Positions 17,442 through 64,000 of a stretch of 64,000 nucleotides of DNA are shown piece by piece; the first letter of the stretch is position 1, and every line of letters begins with the position of its first letter. The DNA lies in contig CAZMYR010000002.1 in the NCBI GenBank assembly GCA_964570585.1, positions 7,313 to 71,312 on the forward strand. Direction: 5' to 3'. The position numbers and the translations under genes were made by a program. Under the pieces are notes generated by a model. That model ran no database searches, was not told where the DNA came from, and saw only the letters and a program-made list of their open reading frames with translations. Source of the DNA: an uncultured Planctomycetia bacterium. Lineage in GTDB: Bacteria > Omnitrophota > Gorgyraeia > JABMRG01 > JAFGKX01.

Positions 17442-18602
17442 TTACAATATCTTCTCATAAGCAGAAAGCAAAGAATTAGCGCTATTTGCCCAGCTATATT
17501 CCGCTTTTGCCTTTTCTCTTGCTTTTTTTGCTAAATTTTCCCTTAATCCTTTGTTCTCTAATAAATTAAGTATTCCTTCTGCCAAAGCATAATAATCCCC
17601 TGGTCTAACTAAAACCCCTGCATCCTTAACCATCTTTTTAACTTCTCCTACGGCACTGGCCACTATTGGTTTGCCAGAAGCTAAATATTCTGCAATCTTT
17701 AAGGGGCTTTTGCAGCGGGTAACCTTTGTATCTCTAAATGGCGCTACGCATACAGTTGAAGCTGCAATATAATACGGAATCTCATCATGGGTTACGCTTC
17801 CTGCAAAAATAACTCTATTCTCTATCCCCAAATCATGGACAAGTTTTTTTAGTTTATGTTCTAAAAACCCTTCCCCTACAATCATAAACCTTGCATCTGG
17901 TTTCTTATGCAAAACTATGTTTGCTGCCTCTATAAACAAATCTACATATTGTGCTCCGTGAAGCTGGCCGATATACAGCACTAAATCTCCATTTAAGTTA
18001 TATTTTTCTTTAATATGGTCTCCATCTAAACCGGGTTTGAATTTTTCTAAATCTGCTCCAACCGGAGCACTAAAAATATATTCTTTTCTTACTCCTGAGT
18101 TAAGTGCCAGCTTTGCCAAAAAGTCACTTGCACATGATACTGAATCAGTCGATCTAAGAAGAAATTTTTCTAAGATTTTAAAAGACATACCTATAAACCT
18201 TGAATGCATACTTCTCCCAACGGACTCATACCAAATCTTCTCCTCCCAATCATCCCAATCATAATGAAGGGGTTTTTTAGTAATATAACTTGCTACTACC
18301 GCGGGTATTGAAGCATAATGGTGGCATTTTTGCAGATGAACAATATCTGCCCACCTGCATAATTTTAAAAGTCTTTTTGTATTTACAATAAATGCCTTAG
18401 GAGAAGGGGTTCTATCAAAAGGGATTAATTCTATAGAATCTATATATTTAGGATAGTGCTTGATATTTATAACCAGAGGAAAATAACACAGCTTTACCTC
18501 ATGGCTTTTTTTAACAAACCCCTGCGCAAAGCTTTTAATCCTTATGGTCCAGGGCTCAGCTTTATCAAATAGATCATGAGGGTGTATCATCAAGATTTTC
18601 AT
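17442..18602 (-). CDS. GT4-family glycosyltransferase
   Basis: C-terminal EX7E-type donor-binding region (FAGSVTHDEIPYYIAASTVCVAPF...KIAEYLASGKPIV). The track ORF extends to 18686, but MKILMIHP at 18602 is the typical GT4 start. Confidence 0.75.
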   Translation of the reverse strand: MKILMIHPHDLFDKAEPWTIRIKSFAQGFVKKSHEVKLCYFPLVINIKHYPKYIDSIELIPFDRTPSPKAFIVNTKRLLKLCRWADIVHLQKCHHYASIPAVVASYITKKPLHYDWDDWEEKIWYESVGRSMHSRFIGMSFKILEKFLLRSTDSVSCASDFLAKLALNSGVRKEYIFSAPVGADLEKFKPGLDGDHIKEKYNLNGDLVLYIGQLHGAQYVDLFIEAANIVLHKKPDARFMIVGEGFLEHKLKKLVHDLGIENRVIFAGSVTHDEIPYYIAASTVCVAPFRDTKVTRCKSPLKIAEYLASGKPIVASAVGEVKKMVKDAGVLVRPGDYYALAEGILNLLENKGLRENLAKKAREKAKAEYSWANSANSLLSAYEKIL

Positions 18603-18766
18603 GATGTTTTGTGTGGTGTTTATTAGGTGCCTATTAGCTTGATATTGGTAGTATTGTATTATACAATGTGTTAAAATTAGATACAACTATATATTGAAGA
18701 TTTGCCAAGCAGATTTAATGAGATTGCTGAAGGCCTTATATTTATCAAACATCTAATATATAAAAT

Positions 18767-21082: not shown

Positions 21083-21841
21083 ATGAATAAAATAAAAAGG
21101 ATATTAGGATTAAGCCTGGCAATAGCAAAGGCAGAGTTTAAGCTCAAGAACGAAGGCAGCTATTTAGGTATATTTTGGTACTTGTTCAATCCTCTGCTTA
21201 CCTTTCTTTTGCTTTTTGCGGTCTTTTTTGACAGGTTGGGGAAAGATATTCCCAATTATCCTCTTTATCTATTACTTGGCATTGTTATCTTTAACTTTTT
21301 CCAGCAAATAACTACAGAGGCCACAAAAGTTATACGGGAGAATAATTGGATAATAAAGTCCATAAAATTTCCCTATGAAGCCCTGATAGGTTCAATTGTT
21401 TTAAAGACCCTTTTTTCCCACATTTTTGAGATAGTTGTTCTGATTCTTTTTCTCTTTTTTTTCAAAATCCCTACAGCAAACTTTATCTTTTATCCTATAA
21501 TATTATGTTTCCTAAGTATCTTTGTTTTTGGGGCTGCGCTTATTCTTTCTTCCTTAACCGTCTATTTTATTGATTTGAGTAATATCTGGGTGTTTGTTTC
21601 TCGTTTAATTTGGTTAGGGACCCCTATCTTTTATGCCATCGGTGCCCAGAAAAGACTATTTTTCATTAATCTATTTAATCCCATGTATTATTTTATCACC
21701 ATAGCAAGAGAACTCATTATTTATACAAGAGTTCCCAAGTTATGGTTGATATTAGGAGCTATTGGTTATAGTTTGCTATTTTCGCTTGTGGGCTTATCCA
21801 TTTTTAATAAATTAAAAACCAAATTTGCTGAAATGATGTAA
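21083..21841 (+). CDS. wzm: ABC-2 type polysaccharide export permease (Wzm-like)
   Basis: 252 aa, 6 TM. Typical Wzm architecture. Start/stop overlap (ATGtaATG) with the downstream ATPase. Confidence 0.8.
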   Translation: MNKIKRILGLSLAIAKAEFKLKNEGSYLGIFWYLFNPLLTFLLLFAVFFDRLGKDIPNYPLYLLLGIVIFNFFQQITTEATKVIRENNWIIKSIKFPYEALIGSIVLKTLFSHIFEIVVLILFLFFFKIPTANFIFYPIILCFLSIFVFGAALILSSLTVYFIDLSNIWVFVSRLIWLGTPIFYAIGAQKRLFFINLFNPMYYFITIARELIIYTRVPKLWLILGAIGYSLLFSLVGLSIFNKLKTKFAEMM

Positions 21842-22575
21842 TGAAGAGCATAATCGTTGAAGGCGTTTGCAAAGAATTTAGGGTAGGTTTCAGGAAAAAT
21901 CAGCCTACTTTAGCCAGATTCATTTCACTCTTTTCCGGAAGGGAGCCTAAAAGAACCCTTAGGGCACTGGATGAGGTTTTCTTTGAACTTGAAGCAGGTC
22001 GAATTTTGGGCGTTATAGGTGAAAACGGCTCTGGGAAAAGCACATTGTTGAGGATTATTGCCGGGATATACACTAAAGATAAAGGCAGAATAGCCGTTAA
22101 CGGCAATGTAATTGCTTTAATAAATTTATATATTGGGCTAAAGGAAAGATTAGTCATGGAAGATAATATCTATCTGATTGGTTCTTTTCTCGGGTTGAGC
22201 CGGAAGGCACTTAAAGAAAGGTTTGACTCAATTGTTGAATTTTCAGAGCTCAAAGATTTTATTAATACAAAAATATATCAGTTTTCTAATGGGATGAGAC
22301 AGCGGCTTGCCTTCTCAATTGCAGTACATTGTAATCCCGATATTCTTCTGCTTGATGAGGTTTTTGAAGTAGGGGATGAACATTTCAGGCTTAAAAGCGC
22401 AGATAGACTCAAGGAATTGACGAAAAATGGAACCAGCGCTATCTTAGTTAGCCATGAAATGTGGATGGTGGAGAAGTACTGTGATAGAGTGATTTGGCTT
22501 GATAAAGGCAGGGTCATTAAAGAAGGCAAGACAGAAGATGTTATCAGGGAATATAAAAGAGCAGGTTCAAAATGA
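21841..22575 (+). CDS. wzt: ABC transporter ATP-binding protein (Wzt/TagH-like, no C-terminal CBM)
   Basis: Walker A GENGSGKST. Signature FSNGMRQRLAFS. Walker B ILLLDE. Confidence 0.85.
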   Translation: MKSIIVEGVCKEFRVGFRKNQPTLARFISLFSGREPKRTLRALDEVFFELEAGRILGVIGENGSGKSTLLRIIAGIYTKDKGRIAVNGNVIALINLYIGLKERLVMEDNIYLIGSFLGLSRKALKERFDSIVEFSELKDFINTKIYQFSNGMRQRLAFSIAVHCNPDILLLDEVFEVGDEHFRLKSADRLKELTKNGTSAILVSHEMWMVEKYCDRVIWLDKGRVIKEGKTEDVIREYKRAGSK

Positions 22576-25078: not shown

Positions 25079-25081
25079 TTT

Positions 25082-46347: not shown

Positions 46348-47055
46348 CTACTGTGCATTAACCCATAATCTTGGCAGCTCCAAAATGGCTTTACAAGTTC
46401 CGCTGAATCCCAATTTAGATCTACCCTCTCTGCGTTTCACAAACACGATTGGAACCTCAGTAAAACTACAGCCCAAACTCAGACAGCGGCTTAACATCTC
46501 TATTTGGAATAAATAGCCATGAGATTTAATGGTATCAAATTGTATGTTAGCTAAAACATCCTTCTTGAAACAGCGAAAGCCGCCGGTGCAATCTTTTATA
46601 CCCGGTCTTAACCAAAGGCGAACAAAAAGATTGGCGATGGAGGTGAGAATTTTTCTCCTTAACTTCCGATTAACTACCCTAGCGCCAGGGACATATCTTG
46701 AGCCAATACTGATGTCTTTATCTTTGGCTGCCTCAAGCAAACTACCCAGATATCTGGGGTGATGTGAAAAATCGGCATCCATCTGAATAATCAGTTGGTA
46801 TGATGGAGAACAGGATAAGATATACCTAAAACTGGTCAGATAAGCTCCTCCCAGACCATCTTTTTCTGGCCGATGTATAACCTTTATCTTATTTGACCTT
46901 TTAGCTAATCTATCCAACACTTCCCCGGTCCCATCAGGAGAGTTATCGTCTACAACTAAAATGTCAAATTCTGGCTGAAAATAAAAAATCTGTGAAATTA
47001 ATTCCTCGATATTCTGCACTTCGTTATAGGTTGGAATCACTACTACTGTTTTCAT
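46348..47055 (-). CDS. GT2 polyprenyl-phosphate sugar synthase (DPM1-like, soluble form)
   Basis: VVVIPTYNEVQNI...ILVVDDNSPDGT. Confidence 0.75.
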   Translation of the reverse strand: MKTVVVIPTYNEVQNIEELISQIFYFQPEFDILVVDDNSPDGTGEVLDRLAKRSNKIKVIHRPEKDGLGGAYLTSFRYILSCSPSYQLIIQMDADFSHHPRYLGSLLEAAKDKDISIGSRYVPGARVVNRKLRRKILTSIANLFVRLWLRPGIKDCTGGFRCFKKDVLANIQFDTIKSHGYLFQIEMLSRCLSLGCSFTEVPIVFVKRREGRSKLGFSGTCKAILELPRLWVNAQ

Positions 47056-49820: not shown

Positions 49821-50771
49821 TCACTCTATTTTTGCGCGGTTCTCCATTATTTTTTTAACAGAATAAGTAGGTTTTCCGGTAGTCTCATAATATGCCCTGA
49901 CAGATATCTCGGCTAACAACCCCATTAGAATAAACTGAAATCCGATTATGATAAACACCACCATTATAAACAATAGCGGGCTTACCCATACCCCTCCAAA
50001 ATATATCTTTCTTATGACTATTAAAACACCTAACAATACTCCTAAAATATTCGATACAATACCTGGAAAACCAAAAACATAGATAGGGTTACTTATATAA
50101 TTGTTAATAAATTCAGCAGTAAAAAAATCCAAAACCACTTTAAAAATACGGCCCAAACCATACTTCGAGTTACCACGGAATCTCTTTCTATGAGAAACTT
50201 CTACTTCGGCGATAGAAGCTCCTTGCCTTGCTGCATATATAGGCAATAATCTATGCATCTCTCCATATAGCCTCATCTTCTTAATTATATCTTTTTTATA
50301 AACCTTAAAGGTGCATCCGAAATCATGCAACTTAATTTTGCTAAGTTTTGAAATTAAATAATTCGCTATATAGGAGGGAATTTTCTTTGTAAAAAGGGGA
50401 TCCTCCCTCTTCCTGCGCCATCCACTAACAACATCAAAACCTTCCTCCATCTTATTAAGAAGCTTTGGTATATCCGAAGGGTTATTTTGCAAATCAGCAT
50501 CCAGAAAAACTATTATCTCTCCCCGCGAATAATCTATCCCTGCCTGCATAGCTGGTGTCTGTCCATAATGCTGGCTAAGCTGCACTAATCTTATTTTTTC
50601 AGAAGAATTAGCAATATTAATCAACGCCTTGAGACTATTATCTCTACTTCCATCGTCTATATATATAATCTCATAATCTTGGACCAGTGATTTCAATACC
50701 TTATTAAGTTCGCTATTTAAGACATTAAGATTCTTCTCCTCATTATATACAGGAATTATTACTGAAATCAT
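49821..50771 (-). CDS. GT2 polyprenyl-phosphate sugar synthase-like with C-terminal TMs (GtrB/ArnC-type). First gene of the long minus-strand operon
   Basis: ISVIIPVYNEE...IIYIDDGSRDNS. AGGAG SD 10 nt upstream of the ATG. Confidence 0.7.
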   Translation of the reverse strand: MISVIIPVYNEEKNLNVLNSELNKVLKSLVQDYEIIYIDDGSRDNSLKALINIANSSEKIRLVQLSQHYGQTPAMQAGIDYSRGEIIVFLDADLQNNPSDIPKLLNKMEEGFDVVSGWRRKREDPLFTKKIPSYIANYLISKLSKIKLHDFGCTFKVYKKDIIKKMRLYGEMHRLLPIYAARQGASIAEVEVSHRKRFRGNSKYGLGRIFKVVLDFFTAEFINNYISNPIYVFGFPGIVSNILGVLLGVLIVIRKIYFGGVWVSPLLFIMVVFIIIGFQFILMGLLAEISVRAYYETTGKPTYSVKKIMENRAKIE

Positions 50772-50942: not shown

Positions 50943-53900
50943 TTACTCCCTCCCCCCTAAAACCATTATTCCCTTAAATCTTTTAAGAAACCATAAATAG
51001 AAACAAAATAACAGAGAAATCATAAATAAGAAAAATAAAATTAGTTTCTTATAAAAAGGCCTTTTAATGAGAAGATATTCAGAAGGGGTAGCCAAGTACT
51101 CCTCTTGCCTTTGAGCTATAGAGGGTGTTTTTAAATCCTGAAGTTTATTTATAGACTCTCTTAAGCTATCTATTTTCTCCTGTTTAGTTAATTTATTTAG
51201 AGAAGTAACTGCATTTAATTCTTTGCCTTCTTTTAAATTGGTTTCTTTTACCTCTAAACCCAACGTTAGGGCTAAATCTAACAGCTTCTCTCCCCTTTCT
51301 TTCCTTACTGGCCAGGTATTGCCATCTTCGGTTTGCCAGAGGTAGTGCCAGTCCTTCTCTGGCAAGGGTGTGACCAAACCAAACCTCTCCGGTTTCTCAT
51401 AAATCTCGGTACCGGCAATTAGATGAAGGGTATTGATGGATTTAATGGTATCAATATAATCAGCATTTCTTTTAATAAAATCTACTGTTTGCTTAAACTC
51501 AACCTCGCCTTCACCAGGAAACCCAATCATAACAAAGACCTCGGTTTTAATCCCCGCCTGCTTGGCAGCCTGGATAGCCTGTTCAGCCTCCTGAGAGGTG
51601 TATATCTTTCTCATCTTCTTTAAAACCTTATCAGAGGCGCTCTCTAAACCTATCTGTAAGACATCGCAACCAGATTCCTTCATCCTCTTAAATAATTCCC
51701 CCCTCATTTGCCTGGAAGGGGCAATCTGGCCATCCCAAGAAATTCTCAAATCTCTCTCCTTAATACAATCGCATATCTTAGATAGCTCCTCGGGGTCTCC
51801 GTTAAGAAGATTGTCGCTGACAGTAAACTTCTTTATCCCGTATTTATTCACATGGTGAGATAATTCCTCCGCAATAGATTCTACCTTCTTCATTCTGTAG
51901 CCAGGGGCTAAGCGAAAATTTTTGCAGAAACTACACTTTCCTCTACAACCCCTGGACCACTCAACCAGGAAAGCGTTTGAATGATAATTTTCTAAATCAA
52001 ACTCCTCATAGGTAGGAAAGGGCGCTTTTTCTAAATCCAAGGGGTCCCTCCTATTATATACCCAGTGATTATTCTTCTTAGTTACTGCTCCAGCTATTCC
52101 GGTTAATTCTTCTCCCTGATTTATCCTTTTAATAATCTCCAAAAGTGTCTCCTCCCCCTCTCCCACTACAAAGGCATCGATATCGTTACCCACATTATCT
52201 AAAAAACCCCTTCTTTGATACTCGGTAGAACAAGACGGTCCACCCAAAATAATCCTTTTATAAGGGGCCTTTTCCTTAAGCCTTCTAATCACCTCGATGG
52301 TAATATTTTCCCTGGGGTCAACTACGGAAAAACCGATTATATCTGTGGCTGAATTAGCCAAGGTATCAACACAATAATCTAATTGTTCTTTAAATAAATC
52401 CAAGAGTGCAGAGAAGGTATATTTATCATTCCAGAAATTCTTATTCTCCACATGCCAGAGCATCTTAAAATCATCACCAATAGTATTATGAAAATAGACG
52501 TTAAAATCGTAAACCTTGGGATTGAGCCTATATCTTTTTAAATAAGAAGCAAGATAGGCTAATCCGATAGGGGGATTATTCACTCCCCAGGGAGGTAGGG
52601 CAACAAGAAGAATATCAGCCATCTTCTTTCTAAAATCCATAGCTTGTAAATCCGTAGATTTCTCGATAAGATTAGTGCTGAAAATTTGGATATCCAGATC
52701 TTTTAAAACACTGATTACTCTTTCAGTTCTTCTCTTACGGGCCTTAAAATTATTTCCATCGGCAGTATACCAATGTGAATCTCTTAACTCTGGAGAAGAA
52801 GGGAAAAAAATTCCATATTTCTCGGAATTTATAGAGCAGTCGTTTTCTCTAACCGCATTACAGGTATTAATATTTGTTACTCCTGAAATATAATTTCTGT
52901 TCTTTTTAATAAATTCGATAGTTTGCTCAACATCAGCTTCTGTTTCTCCGGGAAATCCAAGAATAAAATTTAGCTGGGTGTTTATTCCTGCCTTACGGGT
53001 ATCCCTCAATACCTCTTCTATTATATCTATTGATAAAGACTTTCTCATCTTTTTTAAGACCTTATTTGAACCAGATTCTATGCCATAATTTAAGGTTAAG
53101 CATCCCGCCTTCCTCATCTTATATAAAAGTGGGTATCTCATTTGTCTTCTTGCTATTGCCAGAGCTATCCAGGTTAATTTATATTTTGAACCAATAATTA
53201 AATCGCATAATTTTCCCAACTCATTTATATTGCCATTAATGAGCGCGTCGTTGAAATAAAAATTGTTTATCTTATTCTTCTCAACATGGTATTTAATCTC
53301 CTCGAACATATTTTCAGCAGTCCTTATTCTATATTTGCCTGTTGCCCTCCAATCATCGCAAAAGGCGCATCTATTAATACAGCCTCTGCTCATTAAAAGA
53401 GGCAGGGCTTTCTCTGTATACTTCTCAAGGTTAAATTCCTCAAAAGTGGGATAGCTCAAGCTATCAAGTGAATTAACAAACTGAGGAATCTCAAAATTAT
53501 TTCCTTTGAGCCTACAAGAAACCACTCCGGGAATATCTATGGATAGATAATTCTCTTTTATTTTACTAACTAATTTAAACAGTGTCGGCTCTCCTTCACC
53601 AAGAACAAAAAAATCAATTATATCTTGAGGGAAAATTTGTTCTCTGTCCTGTTTTGACAAACAACCACGACCGCCAACCACAATTATTTTATCGGGGGAC
53701 CTTTCTTTAATCTGCTTGATTACCTCAATAGTGAATAACCTGTTTGAAGCGCAGACAGAAAATCCATAGATATTTGTATTTGAAAAAGAGAGAATTTTCT
53801 CCGCGCAATACTCAACTTCATTCTTTAATAGTTGCTTAAGTTGAATAAATGAATCCCAATCGCACCAATGTTTGCTGTTGTCCAAATTCCATAATTCTTT

Positions 53901-54071
53901 AACTCTATCACTAACTTTTTCATAAACATCGATATTTAGATCCAGAACTCCTGCCCTTATCTTTCTTGCTCTTAAATTTGCCGATAAATAAGCTAAACTC
54001 AAAAGTGGCATTTTTACTTCCCATGCTGGACAAGCTACCAAAATAATATCCTTATCGTTTATCATGTTCAA
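50943..54071 (-). CDS. Fused two-module cobalamin-binding radical SAM enzyme (1042 aa)
   Basis: Two complete B12-binding + radical SAM units with cysteine motifs CINRCAFC and CRGKCSFC. Confidence 0.8.
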   Translation of the reverse strand: MNMINDKDIILVACPAWEVKMPLLSLAYLSANLRARKIRAGVLDLNIDVYEKVSDRVKELWNLDNSKHWCDWDSFIQLKQLLKNEVEYCAEKILSFSNTNIYGFSVCASNRLFTIEVIKQIKERSPDKIIVVGGRGCLSKQDREQIFPQDIIDFFVLGEGEPTLFKLVSKIKENYLSIDIPGVVSCRLKGNNFEIPQFVNSLDSLSYPTFEEFNLEKYTEKALPLLMSRGCINRCAFCDDWRATGKYRIRTAENMFEEIKYHVEKNKINNFYFNDALINGNINELGKLCDLIIGSKYKLTWIALAIARRQMRYPLLYKMRKAGCLTLNYGIESGSNKVLKKMRKSLSIDIIEEVLRDTRKAGINTQLNFILGFPGETEADVEQTIEFIKKNRNYISGVTNINTCNAVRENDCSINSEKYGIFFPSSPELRDSHWYTADGNNFKARKRRTERVISVLKDLDIQIFSTNLIEKSTDLQAMDFRKKMADILLVALPPWGVNNPPIGLAYLASYLKRYRLNPKVYDFNVYFHNTIGDDFKMLWHVENKNFWNDKYTFSALLDLFKEQLDYCVDTLANSATDIIGFSVVDPRENITIEVIRRLKEKAPYKRIILGGPSCSTEYQRRGFLDNVGNDIDAFVVGEGEETLLEIIKRINQGEELTGIAGAVTKKNNHWVYNRRDPLDLEKAPFPTYEEFDLENYHSNAFLVEWSRGCRGKCSFCKNFRLAPGYRMKKVESIAEELSHHVNKYGIKKFTVSDNLLNGDPEELSKICDCIKERDLRISWDGQIAPSRQMRGELFKRMKESGCDVLQIGLESASDKVLKKMRKIYTSQEAEQAIQAAKQAGIKTEVFVMIGFPGEGEVEFKQTVDFIKRNADYIDTIKSINTLHLIAGTEIYEKPERFGLVTPLPEKDWHYLWQTEDGNTWPVRKERGEKLLDLALTLGLEVKETNLKEGKELNAVTSLNKLTKQEKIDSLRESINKLQDLKTPSIAQRQEEYLATPSEYLLIKRPFYKKLILFFLFMISLLFCFYLWFLKRFKGIMVLGGRE

Positions 54072-54103: not shown

Positions 54104-54985
54104 TTAATGTAAATAAGTTATTGCTGCCTCGCATCTTTTACAGATAAAGTCTTCTGGAGATTCAGTTTTACCCTCGACCATATCCCAGACCTTCTTTCTT
54201 CTTCCATTCCAGATCTCATAAATAGAAGAATTCTTTACATTACCCAATACTACTTCCCTCCTCCAATCCATACAGCAGATAACAGCATCGCCATTGTATA
54301 AAATAGGAAGTAACTCATTTGCCCAAATAGTGGCGCATCCACCGACAGAGGAATGTCTCACTTTGGGCAGAGAGCTAACATTTCCTGCTCGAGAGATAGG
54401 CCCTTCAAAATAGCTTATCTTTCTTATTCCTTTTTCTTGCCAGAAATTAAAGGTTTCCTCTTTCTCTTTCTCAGTCAAATACTTATGTTTTAGGAAGGTA
54501 ATTATAATAAATTCTTCAATATTTCGTCCAGACCTTCTGACCATTTCGATAAACTGACCGATTCTTTTTAGGGTAAGCTCAGGATTTAGGCCCGTAGCAC
54601 CGTAAATAGTTTTTGGATATATTCCATGAACGCTTATCCCTACCCAATCTAACTTAGAATTAATCAAGGCCATGGAGAGCTCTTCTGTTAAAAGGCTCCC
54701 ATTGGTCAAGATATGGATAGAGCTTTGAGGATTCTTTTCTTTAGCATAATTTATTTTTTTTACTATATCCTTATCCATCAAGGGTTCATTCATAAGATAG
54801 GGCATAATTCTTTCTATAGAAGAATTATATTGGCTGCACTCATCAACAATTTTTCTGTACAGATTCCCCTCCATATTGCCTTGAGGCAATTCATCTTTAA
54901 CCTCAGGATAAGGGCAAAAGATACACCTGCCATTGCAGCATGATGCAGTCTGGATCATTATATATTTAGGAAATTTTAAATGCAT
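54104..54985 (-). CDS. Small radical SAM protein with SPASM/twitch-type C-terminal Cys domain
   Basis: CCNGRCIFC. GGCATIWANELLPILYNGDAVICC...CKRCE. Confidence 0.65.
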   Translation of the reverse strand: MHLKFPKYIMIQTASCCNGRCIFCPYPEVKDELPQGNMEGNLYRKIVDECSQYNSSIERIMPYLMNEPLMDKDIVKKINYAKEKNPQSSIHILTNGSLLTEELSMALINSKLDWVGISVHGIYPKTIYGATGLNPELTLKRIGQFIEMVRRSGRNIEEFIIITFLKHKYLTEKEKEETFNFWQEKGIRKISYFEGPISRAGNVSSLPKVRHSSVGGCATIWANELLPILYNGDAVICCMDWRREVVLGNVKNSSIYEIWNGRRKKVWDMVEGKTESPEDFICKRCEAAITYLH

Positions 54986-54987: not shown

Positions 54988-57111
54988 TTAGATGGTATGT
55001 AGTTCGTGTGCTGAAATACCTATCCTTCCTGAAAAGTTCAGGTTATCTTTCATCATTCGCGCATTTAACATCCTTGCCTTCATTCTCTTAGGGCAATTCT
55101 GGACCTGGCCTAATACATTTAATTTGTTACCTGAAAAATCGAAAATAATATCTGGAAGGTTTCCTAAATCATCGCTCCTTAATTCTAAACACCCATTTTG
55201 ATGGTTGCCTAAAGTTATATCTCGCCAGATGCCTTCTGCCTCAGGGAAGTCTCCTTGCTCATCACCGCTAACCCAAGTCTTATATCTCTCAGAGGCCATT
55301 AAGCCCACTTTCCACTCCCCGATATCCAATTCTTTATTTAAATGGTTAGTTACCTTCCAGTGAAGCCGGCCTGAACCATCTATGGCCATCTTCCAGAGCT
55401 GGGTTATGGGCAGATTATCCCACTTGATCCAGGCAATAAACCGATGCCGGCCCATCTTTATCTTCCAGTGGCCCTGGGATGAATCGTGCCAATTTTTTCC
55501 GAGCTTAAAGGAGCTATTTAGACCCACATCTTCGGTTACCTCCTTATCCTGATAGTAGAGCTTTAGCCATCCATTATTCCAGCTAAGTTTTAGGGAATTT
55601 CTGATAATACTCCTGTCCCTGCCTCTATCTTCCCTCGCCTTATTGAGCTTATTAATAACCCTCCTTAGCTTCCAACCTTCGAATTTCCCATCTTCCATAG
55701 GATAATGATTAATTATCAAATGAGGTATTTTTAACTTATACAAAGTTAGAAGCACTTTTCGGAGTCGTTTCATCCTTACCTTAAAATTATTACCTGTATT
55801 ATCGTAGAAGTAATTCCAATTATCACTGGGTAAATAAATTCCGTACTTTTCAGGATGAAGCCCGATGTCTGCTGTAGGGTTAATAAATAAGGTTGAGACA
55901 TTGGTTACCTCATGGATATATTCCTTATTTCTCTCAATGAAATTAAGGGTCTCCTTAAAGCAAAAATTGTCTTCGCCAGGATGACCAACGATAATATTAA
56001 TAGTTGTCCGGATTCCGCTTTGGTAGGTTGCTCTGACTAGTCTCTCGGCATCCTGGCCGGTATAAGGCTTGTTCATCTTCTTGAGTACTTTATCCGATGC
56101 GTTATCCATACCGTAACATAAATTTCTGCATCCTGCTTCTTCCATTTTCTTAAGTAGTTTAAACTCCATATCTTTTCTTATAACAGCATAACTGCCCCAG
56201 TTAAATTTTAATTTTGATTCAATAACTAAGTCACAAAATGCCTCCAGTTGTCTGAGATTGCCATTACATTCTAAATCGTTGAATGAAAAGTTATTGCAGT
56301 CGTTATTCTCGATATGAAACCTGACTTCTTCTAATATGTCCTCCGGCTTCTTCCATCTATACGGTGCGCACATAGCGCAGTCAACACAAAAACTACATCG
56401 GCGAGGGCATCCCCTGCTCGATAAAAGGGGTAAGATTCTTGTATTTTGCTTAAGATATAAAGAGTACAAACTTAAATCAAATTCTTCAAATGTGGGAAAA
56501 GGGATAGTATCTAATTTCTTCACTGGGTCAGGTCTTTGCTCACCAATATATTTCCCATCTCTATGCATTAAAGTACCGGGGATGTCTCCGATAATACCTT
56601 TTTTATAAAATGAAATCAGGATATTTAATAAGGGTTTTTCTCCTTCTCCAATTACAAAAATATCCACCAAGCCCTTTTTAACTTTATAGAAATCCCAATA
56701 ACAACCTGGCCCGCCAAAAATTATTATCCTTTTCTTATCCCTTTGCTTGATAATCTCTGTAATCTTCTCTGCTACAAATAAACTCATATAATTAACTGAA
56801 AAACCGATAAATTTTGTTTCTATAGATAAAACTTGATTAACAAAAGAATCTACCTCTTTATCAAAAGCCCCTACTAAATCTTTGGCCACCTGTCGAGGGA
56901 GAAGTTGGAATAGGGTCTCGATCTTCCAAAATCTTTTATTCTTTCGAGAGGCCTTATTGTATAGGTAAGCATTAAGATCGATTATCTTTGAATTGAACCT
57001 ATGGCTATTTAGATAGGAAACCAGATAAGCGATACCTATAGGAGGCATCTTTGTCTCCCAGGGTGGCACCATAACCAAAACAATATCGGGTTTCTTAACT
57101 TGACTATTCAT
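54988..57111 (-). CDS. Cobalamin-binding radical SAM enzyme with ~230-aa Trp-rich C-terminal extension
   Basis: CPRRCSFC. The C-terminal region WKIKMGRHRFIAWIKWDN...GEWKVGLMASERYKTWVSGDEQGDFPEAEGIWRDITLGNHQNGC is duplicated at 57157-57568. Confidence 0.75.
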   Translation of the reverse strand: MNSQVKKPDIVLVMVPPWETKMPPIGIAYLVSYLNSHRFNSKIIDLNAYLYNKASRKNKRFWKIETLFQLLPRQVAKDLVGAFDKEVDSFVNQVLSIETKFIGFSVNYMSLFVAEKITEIIKQRDKKRIIIFGGPGCYWDFYKVKKGLVDIFVIGEGEKPLLNILISFYKKGIIGDIPGTLMHRDGKYIGEQRPDPVKKLDTIPFPTFEEFDLSLYSLYLKQNTRILPLLSSRGCPRRCSFCVDCAMCAPYRWKKPEDILEEVRFHIENNDCNNFSFNDLECNGNLRQLEAFCDLVIESKLKFNWGSYAVIRKDMEFKLLKKMEEAGCRNLCYGMDNASDKVLKKMNKPYTGQDAERLVRATYQSGIRTTINIIVGHPGEDNFCFKETLNFIERNKEYIHEVTNVSTLFINPTADIGLHPEKYGIYLPSDNWNYFYDNTGNNFKVRMKRLRKVLLTLYKLKIPHLIINHYPMEDGKFEGWKLRRVINKLNKAREDRGRDRSIIRNSLKLSWNNGWLKLYYQDKEVTEDVGLNSSFKLGKNWHDSSQGHWKIKMGRHRFIAWIKWDNLPITQLWKMAIDGSGRLHWKVTNHLNKELDIGEWKVGLMASERYKTWVSGDEQGDFPEAEGIWRDITLGNHQNGCLELRSDDLGNLPDIIFDFSGNKLNVLGQVQNCPKRMKARMLNARMMKDNLNFSGRIGISAHELHTI

Positions 57112-57156: not shown

Positions 57157-57540
57157 CTACTTTTTAAGCACTATCTTTCCTGAAAAGTTCAGGTTATCTT
57201 TCATCATTCGCGCATTTAACATCCTTGCCTTCATTCTCTTAGGGCAATTCTGGACCTGGCCTAATACATTTAATTTGTTACCTGAAAAATCGAAAATAAT
57301 ATCTGGAAGGTTTCCTAAATCATCGCTCCTTAATTCTAAACACCCATTTTGATGGTTGCCTAAAGTTATATCTCGCCAGATGCCTTCTGCCTCAGGGAAG
57401 TCTCCTTGCTCATCACCGCTAACCCAAGTCTTATATCTCTCAGAGGCCATTAAGCCCACTTTCCACTCCCCGATATCCAATTCTTTATTTAAATGGTTAG
57501 TTACCTTCCAGTGAAGCCGGCCTGAACCATCTATGGCCAT
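57157..57540 (-). pseudogene. Gene fragment: exact duplicate of the C-terminal 120 codons of 54988..57111 (DNA identity 55018-55408 vs 57171-57568)
   Basis: The identity extends ~28 nt upstream of the ORF's first Met. This suggests a duplication remnant rather than an independent gene. It could be expressed as a standalone domain. Confidence 0.5.
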
Positions 57541-57554
57541 CTTCCAGAGCTGGG

Positions 57555-59042
57555 TTATGGGCAGATTACTCCACCATCTTCATTAATGTGCTTATCTTTC
57601 TTTTCCTCTAAGACTTTATTTGTAAACTCAATACATTCTGCTTCCTCGGTATAGGGAATATGCGATTGGCTAGCTAGATTTTTCAACTCTTTAATCTTCC
57701 TCTCTCTAACCTCTCTTGTATTATTTTCACGAGGTATATGCCAGTTAAATTCGCCACTATCTTGAGGAAAAGTAATGCCGTATTTTTTCGGGTTATGAAA
57801 TATTTCTGAGCCAGTCATTATGTACAAAGGGTTTATAGACTTTATTAAGGTAATAAATTTAGTGTTTCTTTTTAAAAACTCTTTAGTCTCATTGAAATCT
57901 TGCTCTGTTTCCCCCGGATACCCTACTATAAAGTAAAGGCATGTTTTTATACCCACTTTATGAGTGTCTCTTAATACCTTCTCTGCTATTTTTCTGGTAA
58001 ACATTTTTCTCATTGCTTTTAAAATTTTATTAGACCCACTCTCTATACCATATTCCAGCCGAAAAAAACCTGCCCTTTTCATCTTTCTTAACAAATCTTC
58101 GGTCATTTCTCTGCGTGAAATTGCCAAACCAGTAATATTTACAAAAAGCCTATTTTTGATTAACAAATTACAAGTTTCCTCTAAAACTTTAATATTTCCA
58201 TTTGCCGCCGCATCAGATACACTTATGTACTCGATATTGTATTTTTCTTTATAAAATTTTATTTGATTAAAAATATTTAAAGCTGATTTAGACTTGAAAA
58301 AAGGGAAAATACTCTTAACGCTACAAAAAGGGCAATTCCCTATACAACCACGAGAAAATTCCATTACAACGCAATTAGAAGACTTATATTCATTTAAATT
58401 GAATTCATCAAATGTAGGATAGGGAAAATTATCTAACCGTTCACCAAACTCAGGAGTTAAATCATCAAAAAAAGTTTCTTTAACCAATACACCTTTTATA
58501 TCAATAGCTTTTGTATTTTCTTTATTTAAAATAGATAATAATAGTTTATATAAAGCTGTCTCTCCCTCGCCTAGTACACAATAATCAACGTAATCCTTTA
58601 TTTTGTTAAGTAAAACTTCTCTTTGTTCTTTTACAGTAACATTTACTCCTCCAAGAACTATTATTTTAAAAGGAGATACGCGCTTAACCCTTTTTACTAT
58701 CTCTTCTAAAATTAGATTGGAACTATCAGTAAGTGAAGACAGACCTAATACTGGCGAGGAAGAGTTAACTATTTCGTCTATAAGTGAATTTAGATGGGTC
58801 TTTATTTTTTCATCGAATTTTAAAAGTTCTTCTTTTTGTCGCCACCAGTGAGCATAATTCATAGACCATAAATATCTGCATTTTTGGGGAACCCCGTTAT
58901 ATAACTTAGTATTAAAATCAAAAATTTCTGTACTTATGCCTTTATCTCTTAAATAACTACTAAGACAAGCCGTCCCCAAAGGAGGAACATCCACTCCCCA
59001 TGGAGGCAGGTTTACTAATAAAATATCTGGTTTATCTGACAT
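57555..59042 (-). CDS. Cobalamin-binding (class B) radical SAM enzyme
   Basis: CIGNCPFC. B12-binding-like N-terminus. Confidence 0.8.
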   Translation of the reverse strand: MSDKPDILLVNLPPWGVDVPPLGTACLSSYLRDKGISTEIFDFNTKLYNGVPQKCRYLWSMNYAHWWRQKEELLKFDEKIKTHLNSLIDEIVNSSSPVLGLSSLTDSSNLILEEIVKRVKRVSPFKIIVLGGVNVTVKEQREVLLNKIKDYVDYCVLGEGETALYKLLLSILNKENTKAIDIKGVLVKETFFDDLTPEFGERLDNFPYPTFDEFNLNEYKSSNCVVMEFSRGCIGNCPFCSVKSIFPFFKSKSALNIFNQIKFYKEKYNIEYISVSDAAANGNIKVLEETCNLLIKNRLFVNITGLAISRREMTEDLLRKMKRAGFFRLEYGIESGSNKILKAMRKMFTRKIAEKVLRDTHKVGIKTCLYFIVGYPGETEQDFNETKEFLKRNTKFITLIKSINPLYIMTGSEIFHNPKKYGITFPQDSGEFNWHIPRENNTREVRERKIKELKNLASQSHIPYTEEAECIEFTNKVLEEKKDKHINEDGGVICP

Positions 59043-59187: not shown

Positions 59188-62100
59188 CTAAGCTTGCTTT
59201 GGAGATAGCTTTAAAATTCTTTTATGCATCTTCTCATTATGCATCAGGTTATCGCAGGTTTTGATGCAGCCGATTTCCTTAAAATAAGGGTGGGTTTTAG
59301 ATAAAGTCTTGGCCCGGCATCTAAACTCATCATATTTTTTGCTGAACCAGATATCTTTAAAATTTTGCTTGTTTATATTTCCCATTGGCTCCTTTACTGC
59401 CCGACAGCAAGGAACGACGGTTCCATCAGCCATAATCCGGCAAAAAAACCAACCAACATAGCAGGGGATAAAATCTACTCTGTGGACATCATAATTACCC
59501 TTATAGCTCGAATCTCCAGAAACCCTTTCTAAGAACCCATCAAAATAATCCAAATTCAATCCATTGGCGGAGGCTCTATTCTGGCTTTCAATCTGTTTAG
59601 CCAATTTAAGAACTTCTTTAGATTGGGCCTGATTTAGGATTAAGCTATCCGTAGCCCCTTCAATAACATCAACCACGGTATAATAGAGATTCTCTGCTTT
59701 TACATCTTGAGCAAGCTTATACATCGCTGGAATATCCTGACAATTGAGATTGGTAATCACATTGGATAGGGTCAAAGAGGGCTTAGAATTCTTCCTTGTT
59801 TGAGCTAAATAAACCAAATTTTCCACAATCTCCTCAAAAAGACCCTGATTTACCCCGGGATGGGTCGCTTGATAGGTTTCATCATGAGCGGCCCACAGGC
59901 TCACTGCCAACTCATCTAATTCTAAATCCACTAATTGCTTTATCTTTTCTTTGTCCATTAAAGAAAAATTGGTGGTAACAGCAGCTTTTATTCCCTTTTT
60001 CTTGGTATATTCTAAGAGCTCCATAATATCAGAATGCATAAAGGGCTCTCCACCTCCAGTATAGCGAATCTTCTCTGCCCCTAAATCAGCTAATTCATCG
60101 ATCAATCTTTTAACTACTTCTGTATCTAATTGCATCCGTAACCATTCATGGTTAAAATCCTTGTTTTCTTCTTTTAAAAGGGATGAATACATCCAGCAGC
60201 CAATACAGCGCTGATTACATCGGTTGGTCAAATCAACAACAATATGCTCTGGTCCCTTAAATGCCCTTCTTCCATCGGTAATACCGGAAATAACCAAATC
60301 CTCTTTTGAGGCCTTTTTTAAAGAGACGCTCTTATGCTTATCTTCAGATTTAAACTTCCTTAAAGTCCTGGTTAATTTAGCCGTCACCGTAAATCCAGCC
60401 CTCTCAAGGGGTCCCAGAGACATCATTTTCTTATGCATATGCATATTTCTACCAATATCATCGCAGCTTTTATAGCAGCCGGCTTCCTGAGTATCCGGGT
60501 CGTTACCGATTAACCTGAAAAACGAGCCGTCCTTTTTATAAACCTTAGCCTTGCTCCGGAAATATCTTTGTTTTGAATTATTCCAGATACTCTTAAAATT
60601 GTCTCTATATAGATTGCCTACCGGAATCCGATGGGACTTAAGACAAGAATTTATATCCCCATTAGGCATAACCCGGGCAAACAACCAGCCAATATAGCAG
60701 GGCATCTTATCGATAATATTTCTATCGTAGGTGGCTTTTTGTAAATCTTGGCAGGAAGAAGTCCGGCGTAAGAAGGAATCAAATCTGAATAATAATACAT
60801 TATCAATGTAACCGCGGGCATCCATTCGCTGGGCAACCCTCTGACAGATTCTTTGAAGCTTCAGAGCCTGTTCAGTATCCAAGATTAATTTATCTGTTTT
60901 GCCCGGCATAGTATCAATAAGGGTAAACTCGACTGACTCCGAGCCCGTATATCTGGCCAGCTCAATCATCTCCTCTACCTCTTGATAATTCATCGTAAAC
61001 AAGACATTGTAGAGCTTTATATAAGGAGTTTCTCTTTTGTTCCTATTAAGATACCTTAAATTCTCCACAATCTGCCTAAAGGCCTCTTCATTTTTATTAG
61101 GATGGGTAATATCGTAGGTGTGAGCCGTCCCGGCCCAGGTACTGACGGTTAGATGCTCTACCCCCATCTTTATCAACTCATCTATTCTTTTTTTATCTAA
61201 AAGGGTAAAGTTTGTATTCACATAACAGACCAGGTCCCTGCTCTTAGTAAACTTGAGTATCTCCATAATATCAGGATGCATGAAGGGCTCTCCTCCGCCA
61301 GAGAAATAAATCTCTTTGCCTCCCAACTTGACAATTTCATCAATTACTTCCTTAACTATCTCTAAGGGTAATTCCTCCCTTTTTTCTTCTTGCGATAACC
61401 TCTTTTCTTCTAAAAGGGGAGAATTACACCAGCAGCCAATACAATTATTATTACAGTTATTGGTAAGGTCAATCTGGACATGAAAGGGGCCCTTATAGGC
61501 ATACTCTCCATCATAGATTCCTAAAATTTCTAAGAAATTCTTCTTTAACCAGGAAGGTTTTGCAAGCCTGAGAATCTTTCTTCCGGCAATCAATCCTCCA
61601 AACAGGGGTACCTTATCCCTGAAGAAACCTAAAAATCTCCTGTTTTGATAAATCCTCTCCCTATCAGGAATAAGCATCTTATTATCAAACTCAACCAATA
61701 TAAACCCTTCTAAATGGGGAATCACACCGTTAGTATAAATCCTCAAAATATGCTCACCCTGGCCAGCAAACAATATTGCTTCCTTAAAAGTCCTTAAATT
61801 TTTCCTTTTCCAGCCACCAGTAACCCCGGACATTCCATCCTCTTTAAGCAACCTATCATCCAGATATATATTCACCGGACGTTTCTCTCCTGAAGCATAT
61901 CTACTCCATAAAACATACCTTTTTGATTCCGGTAAATAAACCTTATATTCGGCAAAGCAAAACCCCTCGCCGCCATCAATTACCATGCCCTTACCAAATA
62001 TATGCTCTTGAATATTTAGATTTCCTGATTTAAATTTACTGGCAGGAATAATAAGCTTTATCTGCGCCTCAGGGAGACTGTAGTCTCCCTTTGCCTTTCT

Positions 62101-63567
62101 TTTCATAGTAAGTTGATGATTTAAACCCTTTTGTTTTTTATCTGAAAAAAATGACTCCTTAATCTGTAAATTCATACCTACATTATCGCAAGACTTATAG
62201 CAATTAATCTCTTTAAAATAAGGGTCGCTTTTAGGTAGGGACTTTGTCTTATATCTAAACTCTCGATAAGCAGGAGAGTCCCAGATTTCTAAAAAATTAT
62301 TCTTGTAAATATTGCCCAAAGGCTTAAGCACTGCTTTACAGCAAGGGATAACTTCACCGGTAGATAAAACCCGTGAGTATGTCCAACCCATATAACAGGG
62401 GAGATTATCAATTATGTCCTTTTCATAGACCTGCTCATATATATTAGCTGAATTTAATCGGCGCATAAAAGAACCAAAACCCAATATTGTTAAAAAGTTA
62501 AAGGTAATCTTGCTATTTTCACCAACAGGACAAAAGTTTTTAAGCTGAGGGCATTTTTTGCAATCCTCTTTAGAGAATTTAAAGGTCATTTTATTATCGA
62601 CCTCATTAATCAAAGGATTCACTTTAGTGGGTAGAGTAGAAAATCCCTCAGGACATCTCAACGAATGCATGGCCTCTTTTCCAACGCCATCTTTGTCTTT
62701 TAACCACTCCTTAAGAAAGAAATTTGGATAAATCCTTATAAATCGGCCGGGGAATTCCCTCAATTCCTTATCTTTTGCAACCTTTTGAGTTTTAAAATCG
62801 AGCAATCCTAATTCCTTAAAATATAAATCCCTGTGCTTGGTCAAGGCATCAAATTGCTCTTTGATATCTTTTACTTGCTGATCAGATAGAGCCAAAAATG
62901 AAGTTTCATCTTTAATGATATCCATTACCTGGAATTCAATAGACTCAACTTGTGTATCTAAAGCAAAATCAATCATCTGCTGGATTTCCCTATAATTTAG
63001 ATTACAAATTACGTTATAAATCTTTATATGGGGAAGATATTTATTTCCTTTAGTCTTTAACCTGGAGAGTCTCTTAAGACTATTTTTTATTTTATAAAAA
63101 TCTACTTCTGTCTTGCCGGGGTGAGTCTCTATATATGTTTCTGGGGTGGCAGCCCAGATACTTGCCGTAATCATATCCACGCCTAAATCGATGAGCCTTT
63201 TTGCTCTTTCCTCATCAATCAAGGTAAAATTGGTAATTATGTTAAGTTTTAGCTCTTTCATTTTTATTAATTCTATAATTTCTATAATATCGGGATGTAA
63301 AAATGGCTCGCCTGCGCCAGAAAGAAAAATTTCCTCTGTCCCTGAACGAGACAAGTCTTCGATTAATGTCTTGACTTTTGCGAATGGTAAACTAAGATTT
63401 TTATCACGCGGTGGATTCTTTATAAAAGAAGAGTGCACCCAGCAACCGATACAGTTGTTATTGCATTTACCGGTTAGGTCAATCTGAACAATCCCTGGAC
63501 CAGTAAAGGCACGCCTACCATCCATTATCCCTTTTAGGGCCGATTGATTAACCTTGGTCTCCAGCAT
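59188..63567 (-). CDS. Three-module radical SAM/SPASM megaprotein (1459 aa) with carbohydrate-binding-module-like inter-module domain
   Basis: Three CxxxCxxC clusters (CNNNCIGC twice, CNQRCIGC). Each is followed by a GGEPF(L/M)HxDI motif and a SPASM-like PCY(M/I/V)GW...G....PCC...GN(I/L)....F..IW tail. Between modules 1 and 2 lies a ~100-aa Y.S...RPVNIYLDD...GGW...GEHILRI...P.L.GF segment with a CBM6/35-like pattern. Confidence 0.8.
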   Translation of the reverse strand: MLETKVNQSALKGIMDGRRAFTGPGIVQIDLTGKCNNNCIGCWVHSSFIKNPPRDKNLSLPFAKVKTLIEDLSRSGTEEIFLSGAGEPFLHPDIIEIIELIKMKELKLNIITNFTLIDEERAKRLIDLGVDMITASIWAATPETYIETHPGKTEVDFYKIKNSLKRLSRLKTKGNKYLPHIKIYNVICNLNYREIQQMIDFALDTQVESIEFQVMDIIKDETSFLALSDQQVKDIKEQFDALTKHRDLYFKELGLLDFKTQKVAKDKELREFPGRFIRIYPNFFLKEWLKDKDGVGKEAMHSLRCPEGFSTLPTKVNPLINEVDNKMTFKFSKEDCKKCPQLKNFCPVGENSKITFNFLTILGFGSFMRRLNSANIYEQVYEKDIIDNLPCYMGWTYSRVLSTGEVIPCCKAVLKPLGNIYKNNFLEIWDSPAYREFRYKTKSLPKSDPYFKEINCYKSCDNVGMNLQIKESFFSDKKQKGLNHQLTMKRKAKGDYSLPEAQIKLIIPASKFKSGNLNIQEHIFGKGMVIDGGEGFCFAEYKVYLPESKRYVLWSRYASGEKRPVNIYLDDRLLKEDGMSGVTGGWKRKNLRTFKEAILFAGQGEHILRIYTNGVIPHLEGFILVEFDNKMLIPDRERIYQNRRFLGFFRDKVPLFGGLIAGRKILRLAKPSWLKKNFLEILGIYDGEYAYKGPFHVQIDLTNNCNNNCIGCWCNSPLLEEKRLSQEEKREELPLEIVKEVIDEIVKLGGKEIYFSGGGEPFMHPDIMEILKFTKSRDLVCYVNTNFTLLDKKRIDELIKMGVEHLTVSTWAGTAHTYDITHPNKNEEAFRQIVENLRYLNRNKRETPYIKLYNVLFTMNYQEVEEMIELARYTGSESVEFTLIDTMPGKTDKLILDTEQALKLQRICQRVAQRMDARGYIDNVLLFRFDSFLRRTSSCQDLQKATYDRNIIDKMPCYIGWLFARVMPNGDINSCLKSHRIPVGNLYRDNFKSIWNNSKQRYFRSKAKVYKKDGSFFRLIGNDPDTQEAGCYKSCDDIGRNMHMHKKMMSLGPLERAGFTVTAKLTRTLRKFKSEDKHKSVSLKKASKEDLVISGITDGRRAFKGPEHIVVDLTNRCNQRCIGCWMYSSLLKEENKDFNHEWLRMQLDTEVVKRLIDELADLGAEKIRYTGGGEPFMHSDIMELLEYTKKKGIKAAVTTNFSLMDKEKIKQLVDLELDELAVSLWAAHDETYQATHPGVNQGLFEEIVENLVYLAQTRKNSKPSLTLSNVITNLNCQDIPAMYKLAQDVKAENLYYTVVDVIEGATDSLILNQAQSKEVLKLAKQIESQNRASANGLNLDYFDGFLERVSGDSSYKGNYDVHRVDFIPCYVGWFFCRIMADGTVVPCCRAVKEPMGNINKQNFKDIWFSKKYDEFRCRAKTLSKTHPYFKEIGCIKTCDNLMHNEKMHKRILKLSPKQA
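61942..62077. repeat. Exact duplication (>=135 bp) shared with 63866-64000, running off the window end
   Basis: Identical strings cttatattcggcaaagcaaaacccctcgccgccatcaattaccatgcccttaccaaatatatg... on both. Confidence 0.8.
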
Positions 63568-63595: not shown

Positions 63596-64000
63596 CTAAC
63601 TATCTTTGACTCCTTTAAGAAAAGCAAAACTGTGAATGTGAGGGATAAAACCTTTAGTATGTATCTTTAAGGTATGCTCCCCTTCACAGGCGTCGAGGGT
63701 TGTTTCTTTAAGCCAGCGTAAATCTTCCGTTGTCCAGCCAGAGGTTGTAGAATTCAATGCCTTTCTTTTAATTAAATTGGCATCAAAATAAAGTTCAACC
63801 GGACGCAGCTTATTAGTTGCATAATAAGACCAGAGCTCGTATCTGCCACCTTCCTTAAAATGCTTCTTATATTCGGCAAAGCAAAACCCCTCGCCGCCAT
63901 CAATTACCATGCCCTTACCAAATATATGCTCTTGAATATTTAGATTTCCTGATTTAAATTTACTGGCAGGAATAATAAGCTTTATCTGCGCCTCAGGGAG
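63596..64000 (-). CDS. Partial paralog of the megaprotein (N-terminus outside window). C-terminal CBM-like domain
   Basis: The track reports 63596..63910 from the first in-window Met, but the frame is open and DNA-identical to the megaprotein coding sequence up to position 64000. Confidence 0.6.
   Translation of the reverse strand, partial: LPEAQIKLIIPASKFKSGNLNIQEHIFGKGMVIDGGEGFCFAEYKKHFKEGGRYELWSYYATNKLRPVELYFDANLIKRKALNSTTSGWTTEDLRWLKETTLDACEGEHTLKIHTKGFIPHIHSFAFLKGVKDS

Follow-up and report, generated by a model that had tools for sequence, protein, structure and literature searches.

The 64,000-nucleotide stretch analysed here (the window; contig CAZMYR010000002.1 of assembly GCA_964570585.1, from an uncultured bacterium placed in the Omnitrophota) carries an open reading frame (ORF) that encodes three radical S-adenosylmethionine (SAM) modules in a single polypeptide of 1459 aa. 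The ORF (59188..63567, minus strand) begins with ATG and holds, in this order, module 1, a domain resembling the carbohydrate-binding modules (CBM) of family 35, module 2 and module 3. The whole 64-kb window is one long glycan/exopolysaccharide (EPS) region, in agreement with the glycan locus setting that an earlier note on this DNA had proposed. We consider, with slightly better than even confidence, that this triple enzyme performs a three-step radical tailoring of the glycan of the locus.

The three radical SAM cores lie as follows.

62962..63477 (minus strand): radical SAM core of module 1, aa 31-202, with CX3CX2C at aa 35-42 and GAGEPFLH at aa 84
60955..61467 (minus strand): radical SAM core of module 2, aa 701-871, with CX3CX2C at aa 705-712 and GGGEPFMH at aa 757
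59713..60231 (minus strand): radical SAM core of module 3, aa 1113-1285, with CX3CX2C at aa 1117-1124 and GGGEPFMH at aa 1171

The earlier note had described a CN(N/Q)(N/R)CIGCW motif recurring three times, each time with a GGEPF-type motif downstream, and all of them are present, as CNNNCIGCW at aa 35 and aa 705 and as CNQRCIGCW at aa 1117. In module 2, a further conserved cysteine (C714) directly follows the CX3CX2C motif. A Pfam scan of the whole 1459-aa protein matched Radical_SAM (E 3e-60), SPASM (E 1e-31) and Fer4_12 in three stretches each. The modules were also cut apart and each was scanned singly against the Pfam gathering scores. Radical_SAM (PF04055) reached 70.9, 76.7 and 70.7 bits in modules 1, 2 and 3 (cutoff 29.5) and SPASM (PF13186) 46, 35.3 and 48.2 bits (cutoff 21.5); all modules pass, with scores well above chance level. 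The claim that these are three complete units thus holds: degenerate modules are ruled out by the passing of every module on its own and by the conservation of all cluster cysteines, the CX3CX2C motif being kept in at least 63 orthologues. With this motif retained, each module is a predicted site for a SAM-cleaving [4Fe-4S] cluster. The modules are paralogues with a mutual identity of 40-43%. No hydrophobic stretch reaches the length of a membrane helix (top Kyte-Doolittle mean over 19 residues, 1.19), and the protein is predicted to be soluble and cytoplasmic, without a transmembrane segment.

Each core is followed by a cysteine-bearing tail.

62188..62397 (minus strand): Twitch-type (truncated SPASM) auxiliary-cluster domain of module 1, with C391, C409, C410, C456 and C460
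60463..60699 (minus strand): Twitch-type domain of module 2, with C957, C975, C1031 and C1035 (four cysteines only)
59254..59463 (minus strand): Twitch-type domain of module 3, with C1369, C1387, C1388, C1434 and C1438

A SPASM-type tail had been proposed for all three modules. This is right in so far as Pfam SPASM is matched three times, but module 2 reads "SC" instead of "PCC" and the full signature is lacking. The conserved tail cysteines number five, four and five in modules 1, 2 and 3 (alignment with 63 full-length orthologues), with the pattern C-X17-(C)C-X45-55-C-X3-C, and in all modules the Pfam SPASM profile aligned over positions 1-53/57 of its 67 only. The seven-cysteine SPASM signature of enzymes with two auxiliary clusters (CX9-15GX4C ... 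CX2CX5CX3C ... C) is absent, its CX2CX5CX3C block being found in none of the tails. A Twitch domain is defined as a truncated SPASM domain at the C-terminus, with the SPASM beta-hairpin, about four cysteines for a single auxiliary cluster and homology to BtrN, SkfB or MoaA (PMC9012708). The tails agree with this definition in sequence. When the tail of module 3 was compared by sequence with solved structures, the Twitch domain of BtrN came first (E 6e-4) and that of SkfB second. C1369, C1387/1388 and C1434/C1438 align with the tail cysteines of BtrN (C-X18-C and CX2C), which we take to be its four auxiliary-cluster ligands. Because only four to five cysteines are conserved per module and these align with the four BtrN ligands, the tails are predicted to be Twitch-type domains with one cluster, and not of the two-cluster AslB/PqqE type. 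The AslB/PqqE-like identity suggested earlier did not survive this comparison: it is ruled out by the cysteine count, by the incomplete SPASM match and by the NCBIfam scores. The PqqE model (TIGR02109) gave 46.6, 73.3 and 68.9 bits for modules 1, 2 and 3 against a cutoff of 381, and the sulfatase maturase model (TIGR03942) is not among the top 25 NCBIfam matches of any module. A one-cluster tail of four to five cysteines, added to the CX3CX2C motif, leads to a prediction of two [4Fe-4S] clusters per module and six per polypeptide.

Module 1 has an additional segment of its own.

62530..62655 (minus strand): insert specific to module 1, with four conserved cysteines (C305, C336, C339, C346), without Pfam match

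This insert spans about 90 aa, and its cysteines (C-X30-C-X2-C-X6-C) are kept in 83-98% of the orthologues; it is possibly an extra metal or Fe-S site.

The only domain found between modules is the following.

61678..62091 (minus strand): beta-sandwich domain of CBM35/CBM6 fold that links modules 1 and 2 (aa ~493-630)

Modules 2 and 3 are joined by about 50 poorly conserved residues, and no second CBM-like domain was found in that short segment, so that the several such domains announced earlier as separating the modules come down to one. Its fold is nevertheless the one predicted, since the linker after module 1 is identified as a CBM6/35-type beta-sandwich by fold and family profile. This profile was built from an alignment (A1) of 36 copies of the domain and, searched against the PDB, found CBM6E (8J3Y, E 1e-5), a CBM35 (2W47, 2.7e-4) and the CBM35 of CsxA (2VZP, 3.7e-3). 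Pfam CBM_6 matches nine of the 36 copies (best E 3.8e-6) and CBM_35_2 five, and the copy of the window is assigned to CBM35/6 by the fold and the family profile, not by a Pfam match of its own. Ten residues of the domain are invariant (N28, F34, G35, Y51, Y67, R73, D80, W96, P127 and H128 in A1 numbering). Against 1.84 billion representative proteins, the A1 profile retrieved 1888 at E<=1e-3, including 718 at E<=1e-10. A Pfam scan that covered 66 of the best matches found the Planctomycete-type domains PSCyt2, PSD1 and PSCyt1 in 17, 14 and 14 proteins, respectively, Radical_SAM in 11, CBM_6, CBM_35_2 and CBM_35 in 7, 7 and 6, PMT_2 (GT-C glycosyltransferases) in 4, and GT1 and B12-binding in one each. 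The linker domain is 15-25% identical to known CBM35 and CBM6 modules (CBM35 of Xyn30D, 4QB1; CBM35 of CsxA, 2VZP; CBM6E, 8J3X). However, classical CBM6/35 modules are attached to secreted glycoside hydrolases, whereas this domain is set inside a cytoplasmic Fe-S enzyme; it also differs from them by its own set of invariant residues and by the failure of the window copy in Pfam.

The same architecture is found in many relatives. A word-indexed search with the 1459-aa protein retrieved 168 relatives at E<=1e-10, of which 120 were listed. Some 70 of these 120 are full-length (~1400-1480 aa, 44-62% identity, 98-100% coverage). They retain three CX3CX2C motifs, their CBM-like domain is placed as in the window protein, and those with a source name come nearly all from metagenome-assembled genomes (MAGs) of Candidatus Omnitrophota/Omnitrophica. 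In the databases these orthologues are called just "radical SAM protein", one bearing an automatic "AlbA" label; an exact-sequence look-up of the 1459-aa protein itself found no record. An alignment was made of 63 full-length orthologues, and in these all three CX3CX2C motifs and the tail cysteines are 98-100% conserved.

Several variants depart from this arrangement. The CBM-like domain is absent from forms of about 1300 aa, which indicates that it is not essential to the triple enzyme, while variant P0059 has two of them. Variants of about 1920 aa (P0049, P0054, P0064, P0069, P0075) have an added N-terminal B12-binding radical SAM module and thus four CX3CX2C motifs. In other relatives, units of module 2 type (47-59% identity) are fused behind B12-radical-SAM modules or, in P0117 and P0120, behind GT1/GT4 glycosyltransferases. 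An 801-aa gene of locus L001 joins a more distant module 3-like unit to a GT4. A scan of one genome per species gave 18 loci, mostly from Omnitrophota or from MAGs labelled Planctomycetia/Planctomycetales. In one of them (L019) three ORFs lie side by side, the first module 2-like and the other two module 3-like, and four others (L009, L020, L016, L017) have stand-alone single-module genes. As related loci carry the modules as separate genes, the 1459-aa protein is a lineage-specific fusion of three paralogous pathway genes. Beside the module 2-type gene of some loci, small radical SAM genes also stand in unbroken rows, of about eleven at most (L012 14797-25666, L014 3279-7490, L016 4601-7708); their products have 305-360 aa and 22-29% identity to modules 1-3.

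Comparison with solved structures brings the modules close to enzymes that act on sugars. Module 3 matches BlsE, MoaA, BtrN and PqqE, and a profile of the module family finds BtrN (1e-8), BlsE (7e-6), DesII (1.3e-5) and then PqqE. Sugar-acting enzymes head both rankings and peptide maturases come close behind, a result that would support a carbohydrate substrate without being decisive. BtrN (2-deoxy-scyllo-inosamine dehydrogenase, PDB 4M7T/4M7S) likewise combines a radical SAM core with a Twitch domain holding one four-cysteine cluster, and its substrate is carbohydrate-like (PMC9012708). However, the similarity to BtrN is weak (E 1e-8 for the module-family profile), and BtrN is a single module of 250 aa from an aminoglycoside pathway, whereas the modules here have about 380-480 aa, are fused by three and include a CBM-like domain. 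BlsE (cytosylglucuronate decarboxylase, PDB 7VOB) and DesII (PDB 8HZY) share 16-18% identity with the modules, but they are single-module enzymes of nucleosides or nucleoside diphosphate (NDP) sugars, without CBM and outside polysaccharide export loci. The SPASM maturases (anSME/AslB, PqqE, AlbA, SuiB) have in common with the modules the Pfam SPASM match and the fold neighbourhood. Unlike them, the modules have neither the seven-cysteine signature, nor an RRE domain, the recognition element of RiPPs (peptides made on the ribosome and altered after translation), nor a precursor peptide, and they score far under the NCBIfam cutoffs.

More than one radical SAM domain per polypeptide has a precedent in FbiC, the FO synthase, in which CofG and CofH are fused or split according to the lineage (PMC11917521); the triple enzyme, fused in Omnitrophota, is likewise split in loci L019 and L009. 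However, FbiC has two domains without Twitch or SPASM tails that catalyse one small-molecule coupling reaction, whereas the protein studied here combines three modules, or four in the ~1920-aa variants, with a Twitch-type tail on each, and a CBM-like domain. A preprint reports giant proteins of Omnitrophota in which many enzyme domains are tiled, including a sugar-metabolism module with radical SAM and GT1 (10.64898/2026.06.07.730766). The triple enzyme fits the tendency of this phylum to fuse pathway steps, but the proteins of that study exceed 10,000 aa, and neither the triple-enzyme family nor its cassette is described there (10.64898/2026.06.07.730766).

The genes that adjoin the triple enzyme, or that accompany it in related loci, are as follows.

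63596..64000 (minus strand): last part (3' end) of the upstream gene, which the window end interrupts, with another CBM35-like copy (51% aa identity) at its close
57555-59042 (minus strand): B12-binding radical SAM protein, 495 aa, directly downstream of the triple enzyme
57157-57540 (minus strand): 127-aa ORF that follows the 495-aa B12-radical-SAM gene
54988-57111 (minus strand): B12-binding radical SAM protein, 707 aa, downstream of the triple enzyme
54104-54985 (minus strand): radical SAM/SPASM protein, 293 aa, downstream of the triple enzyme
50943..54071 (minus strand): 1042-aa protein with two B12-binding radical SAM modules, conserved beside the triple enzyme in related loci
21083..22575 (plus strand): Wzm/Wzt-type ABC-2 exporter pair, which adjoins the cassette in related loci
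17442..18686 (minus strand): GT4 glycosyltransferase, which of all neighbours of the triple enzyme is conserved best across related loci (44-64% identity)
22567-23979, 41555-43000, 43002-44381 and 48317-49747: further B12-binding radical SAM genes

A recurrent cassette is seen in the related loci: Wzm/Wzt, B12-radical-SAM, triple enzyme, B12-radical-SAM and GT4. In these loci the exporter is a pair of Wzm and a long Wzt, and the B12-radical-SAM gene upstream of the triple enzyme encodes 700-790 aa. In locus L021 the conserved GT4 has a CBM-like domain at its C-terminus, and this domain is also fused to PMT_2 glycosyltransferases. The window has eight to nine B12-binding radical SAM modules in seven to eight genes, a density that is unusual for a glycan locus. 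Seven of these modules, from six genes, were compared with NCBIfam (the gene at 41555-43000 was covered by the Pfam scan only), and all fall below every curated cutoff, their best matches being the RiPP C-methyltransferase, BchE, HpnJ and PhpK families. Neither the module 1 insert nor the C-terminal domain of the 707-aa B12 enzyme matched anything in Pfam. In related loci, the Wzt (ABC ATPase) genes beside the cassette are greatly extended, to 686-1370 aa (L002 5586-7646, L005 2608-5388, L012 4789-7587, L021 866-4978), against 244 aa in the window, and these extensions do not match the CBM35-like profile.

If the triple enzyme tailors carbohydrates, each module would produce a 5'-deoxyadenosyl radical and abstract hydrogen from a different sugar C-H of the locus glycan or glycoconjugate, or of its precursors. 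The outcome would be an oxidation, a deamination/dehydrogenation, a decarboxylation, an epimerisation or a dehydration. BtrN oxidises a secondary alcohol, DesII catalyses a deamination or a dehydrogenation and BlsE a decarboxylation. The polypeptide would carry six Fe-S clusters and perhaps, in the module 1 insert, a seventh metal site; the neighbouring B12-radical-SAM enzymes would add C-methyl groups. The CBM-like domain would hold the enzyme on the nascent lipid-linked glycan at the cytoplasmic face before export by Wzm/Wzt, and tailoring would take place at the level of the polymer or oligomer rather than on free sugar nucleotides. In the Wzm/Wzt pathway, as in ATP-binding cassette (ABC)-transporter-dependent O-antigen synthesis, the chain is completed on the cytoplasmic face and then exported. 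The Twitch auxiliary cluster would serve as an electron conduit, a role already proposed for that of BtrN (PMC9012708). The fusions to glycosyltransferases, the conservation of the cassette and the closest relatives of solved structure strengthen our inference of an action on a polysaccharide. A more specific version of this scheme is put forward tentatively: the Omnitrophota cassette may edit finished or growing polysaccharide at the polymer level, with CBM35-like domains docking Fe-S enzymes on it. The edits that such a cassette might make, an equally tentative point, are epimerisation, oxidation, deoxygenation and C-methylation through C-H abstraction.

Several observations weigh against a carbohydrate role. 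Not one module reaches a curated NCBIfam cutoff (best TIGR04317, about 110 bits against 380), and the B12-radical-SAM neighbours score best, although below cutoff, on the RiPP C-methyltransferase subfamily (TIGR03975). The CBM-like copy of the 1459-aa protein is without any Pfam match, many Planctomycete PSCyt/PSD1 proteins of unassigned role contain members of its domain family too, and the ~1300-aa orthologues wholly lack it. Lastly, no member of the family has a characterised substrate, product or activity.

It is rather unlikely that the modules tailor soluble nucleotide-sugar precursors before their use by glycosyltransferases, the fusion channelling a three-step pathway. The CBM-like domain would in that case, and with the same doubt, be a docking module for small ligands or for other proteins and not a polymer anchor. 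BlsE, BtrN and DesII all act on small molecules, the locus contains a DegT-family aminotransferase, and the orthologues devoid of the CBM-like domain would also fit. However, neither a nucleotidyltransferase nor a 4,6-dehydratase gene was found in the 64-kb window, the CBM6/35 fold usually binds glycan chains, and the CBM-like domain is attached to glycosyltransferases of the pathway.

There is a small probability that the triple enzyme is a multi-site maturase of peptides or proteins (RiPP, proteusin or anSME type) that would introduce cross-links or epimerisations, the B12 neighbours C-methylating the peptide. Pfam detects no RRE or PqqD domain, and just ~25-30 aa precede each CX3CX2C motif. 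The gene is flanked by gaps of 145 and 28 bp, too short for a precursor gene, and nothing notable was seen among the small ORFs of other gaps, which bears out the earlier remark that no precursor-peptide ORF is evident. Furthermore, the fusion partners are glycosyltransferases and a CBM-fold domain, and no peptide-maturase model of NCBIfam comes near its cutoff. These points are set against the fact that the SPASM/Twitch enzymes studied so far mostly act on peptides, the close structural neighbourhood of SkfB, SuiB, PqqE, anSME and CteB, the TIGR03975 matches of the B12-radical-SAM neighbours, and a sulfatase-family gene in one related locus.

A slightly smaller probability still is given to a cassette that modifies a membrane lipid or glycolipid by C-C or ether cross-links and methylation, the ABC-2 transporter exporting the lipid. 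Known lipid-acting parallels are Tes/GDGT-MAS, HpnJ, HpnR and the ladderane-associated B12-radical-SAM enzymes. The NCBIfam matches are weak, being Tes (35 bits) in the case of module 1 and, among the B12 neighbours, HpnJ, HpnR and rSAM_ladder_B12, and the literature links Omnitrophota with tetraether-lipid enzymes; yet none of these scores comes near its family cutoff, the 1459-aa protein has no membrane segment, and both the CBM fold and the glycosyltransferase fusions indicate sugars.

Finally, exact DNA repeats of 135 nt and 392 nt in the region suggest an artefact of assembly or annotation in which a repeat was mis-joined, or a protein with one functional module alone, which is extremely improbable: at least 63 independent assemblies share the three-module order and the CBM-like domain at 44-62% identity with every cluster cysteine kept, so that an artefactual fusion is ruled out and the fusion is genuine. 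In both the triple enzyme and the upstream gene, the first repeat (61942-62076 = 63866-64000) takes in the beginning of the CBM35-like domain. It reaches the end of the window, so that its length is at least 135 nt, and beyond it identity falls to ~50-57%. The second is a direct repeat (55026-55417 = 57177-57568) that could result from a recent duplication or gene conversion, from a split gene or from an assembly effect. The beta-rich domain at the C-terminus of the 707-aa B12-radical-SAM protein is present again, on its own, as the 127-aa ORF, with 122 of 123 aa identical.

The kind to which the triple enzyme belongs, the Twitch radical SAM enzymes, is known and includes sugar-acting members. 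What is distinctive is its triple (up to quadruple) fusion, the internal CBM35-like domain and the conserved polysaccharide-export cassette in an uncultured phylum. Searches of the literature on multi-radical-SAM proteins, on radical SAM enzymes in polysaccharide, O-antigen and capsule loci, and on radical SAM enzymes of Omnitrophota brought up no account of the family. The earlier remark that no described precedent was known is borne out in this sense, but dozens of orthologues are already present in public sequence databases. To our knowledge, sugar-acting radical SAM enzymes are known only as single-module, small-molecule enzymes of antibiotic pathways. Radical editing of glycans at the polymer level, should this doubtful proposal prove true, would be a class of polysaccharide modification new to description and the glycan counterpart of proteusin-type peptide maturation. 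If the carbohydrate-tailoring reading is right, radical chemistry, including the functionalisation of unactivated C-H bonds, would tailor the cell-surface glycans of a large uncultured phylum, and a carbohydrate-binding fold would have been recruited inside the cytoplasm so that Fe-S enzymes can dock on their substrate. The locus would also offer a concrete, clonable cassette for new sugar modifications and radical SAM reactions. Three radical SAM domains on one chain, or four as in some variants, are a rarity, which makes the protein useful for the study of electron delivery between modules and of substrate hand-over.

The rest of the glycan/EPS region contains the following genes.

7210-17030: Wzz-type, TPR, HD, XrtA/PEP-CTERM-type ATPase, Wzc-like and Wza genes
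18767-20590, 36620-38356, 38353-40110 and 44378-46306: four PMT_2 (GT-C) genes
23918-34616, 46348-47055 and 49821-50771: many GT2/GT4 genes
25082-25732: methyltransferase
34760-36616: AsnB-type amidotransferase
40159-41526: hydrolase
47052-48314: DegT aminotransferase

The export genes resemble an XrtA/PEP-CTERM-style set. The ATPase matches TIGR03015 (221 bits) and the AsnB-type protein TIGR03108, both below cutoff, and no exosortase gene was seen in the 64-kb window.

A search of the whole window with Rfam found two tRNAs and nothing else. One of them, tRNA-Ser(GGA) at 6021-6110, stands beside a small block that looks like an integrated element (2472-6110). This block comprises genes for a tyrosine integrase (2472-3530), an HTH_17 excisionase-like protein (3540-3767), an XRE-type helix-turn-helix (HTH) protein (3988-4179), a 246-aa protein without Pfam match and a trypsin-like peptidase (5018-5836). 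The second, tRNA-Ser(CGA), lies at 7114-7205. On the minus strand, an ORF of more than 781 aa (2-2347) runs off the left end of the window; it combines ADH_N (GroES-like) and class II aldolase domains, and its GC content is 43%, against about 35% in the rest of the window.

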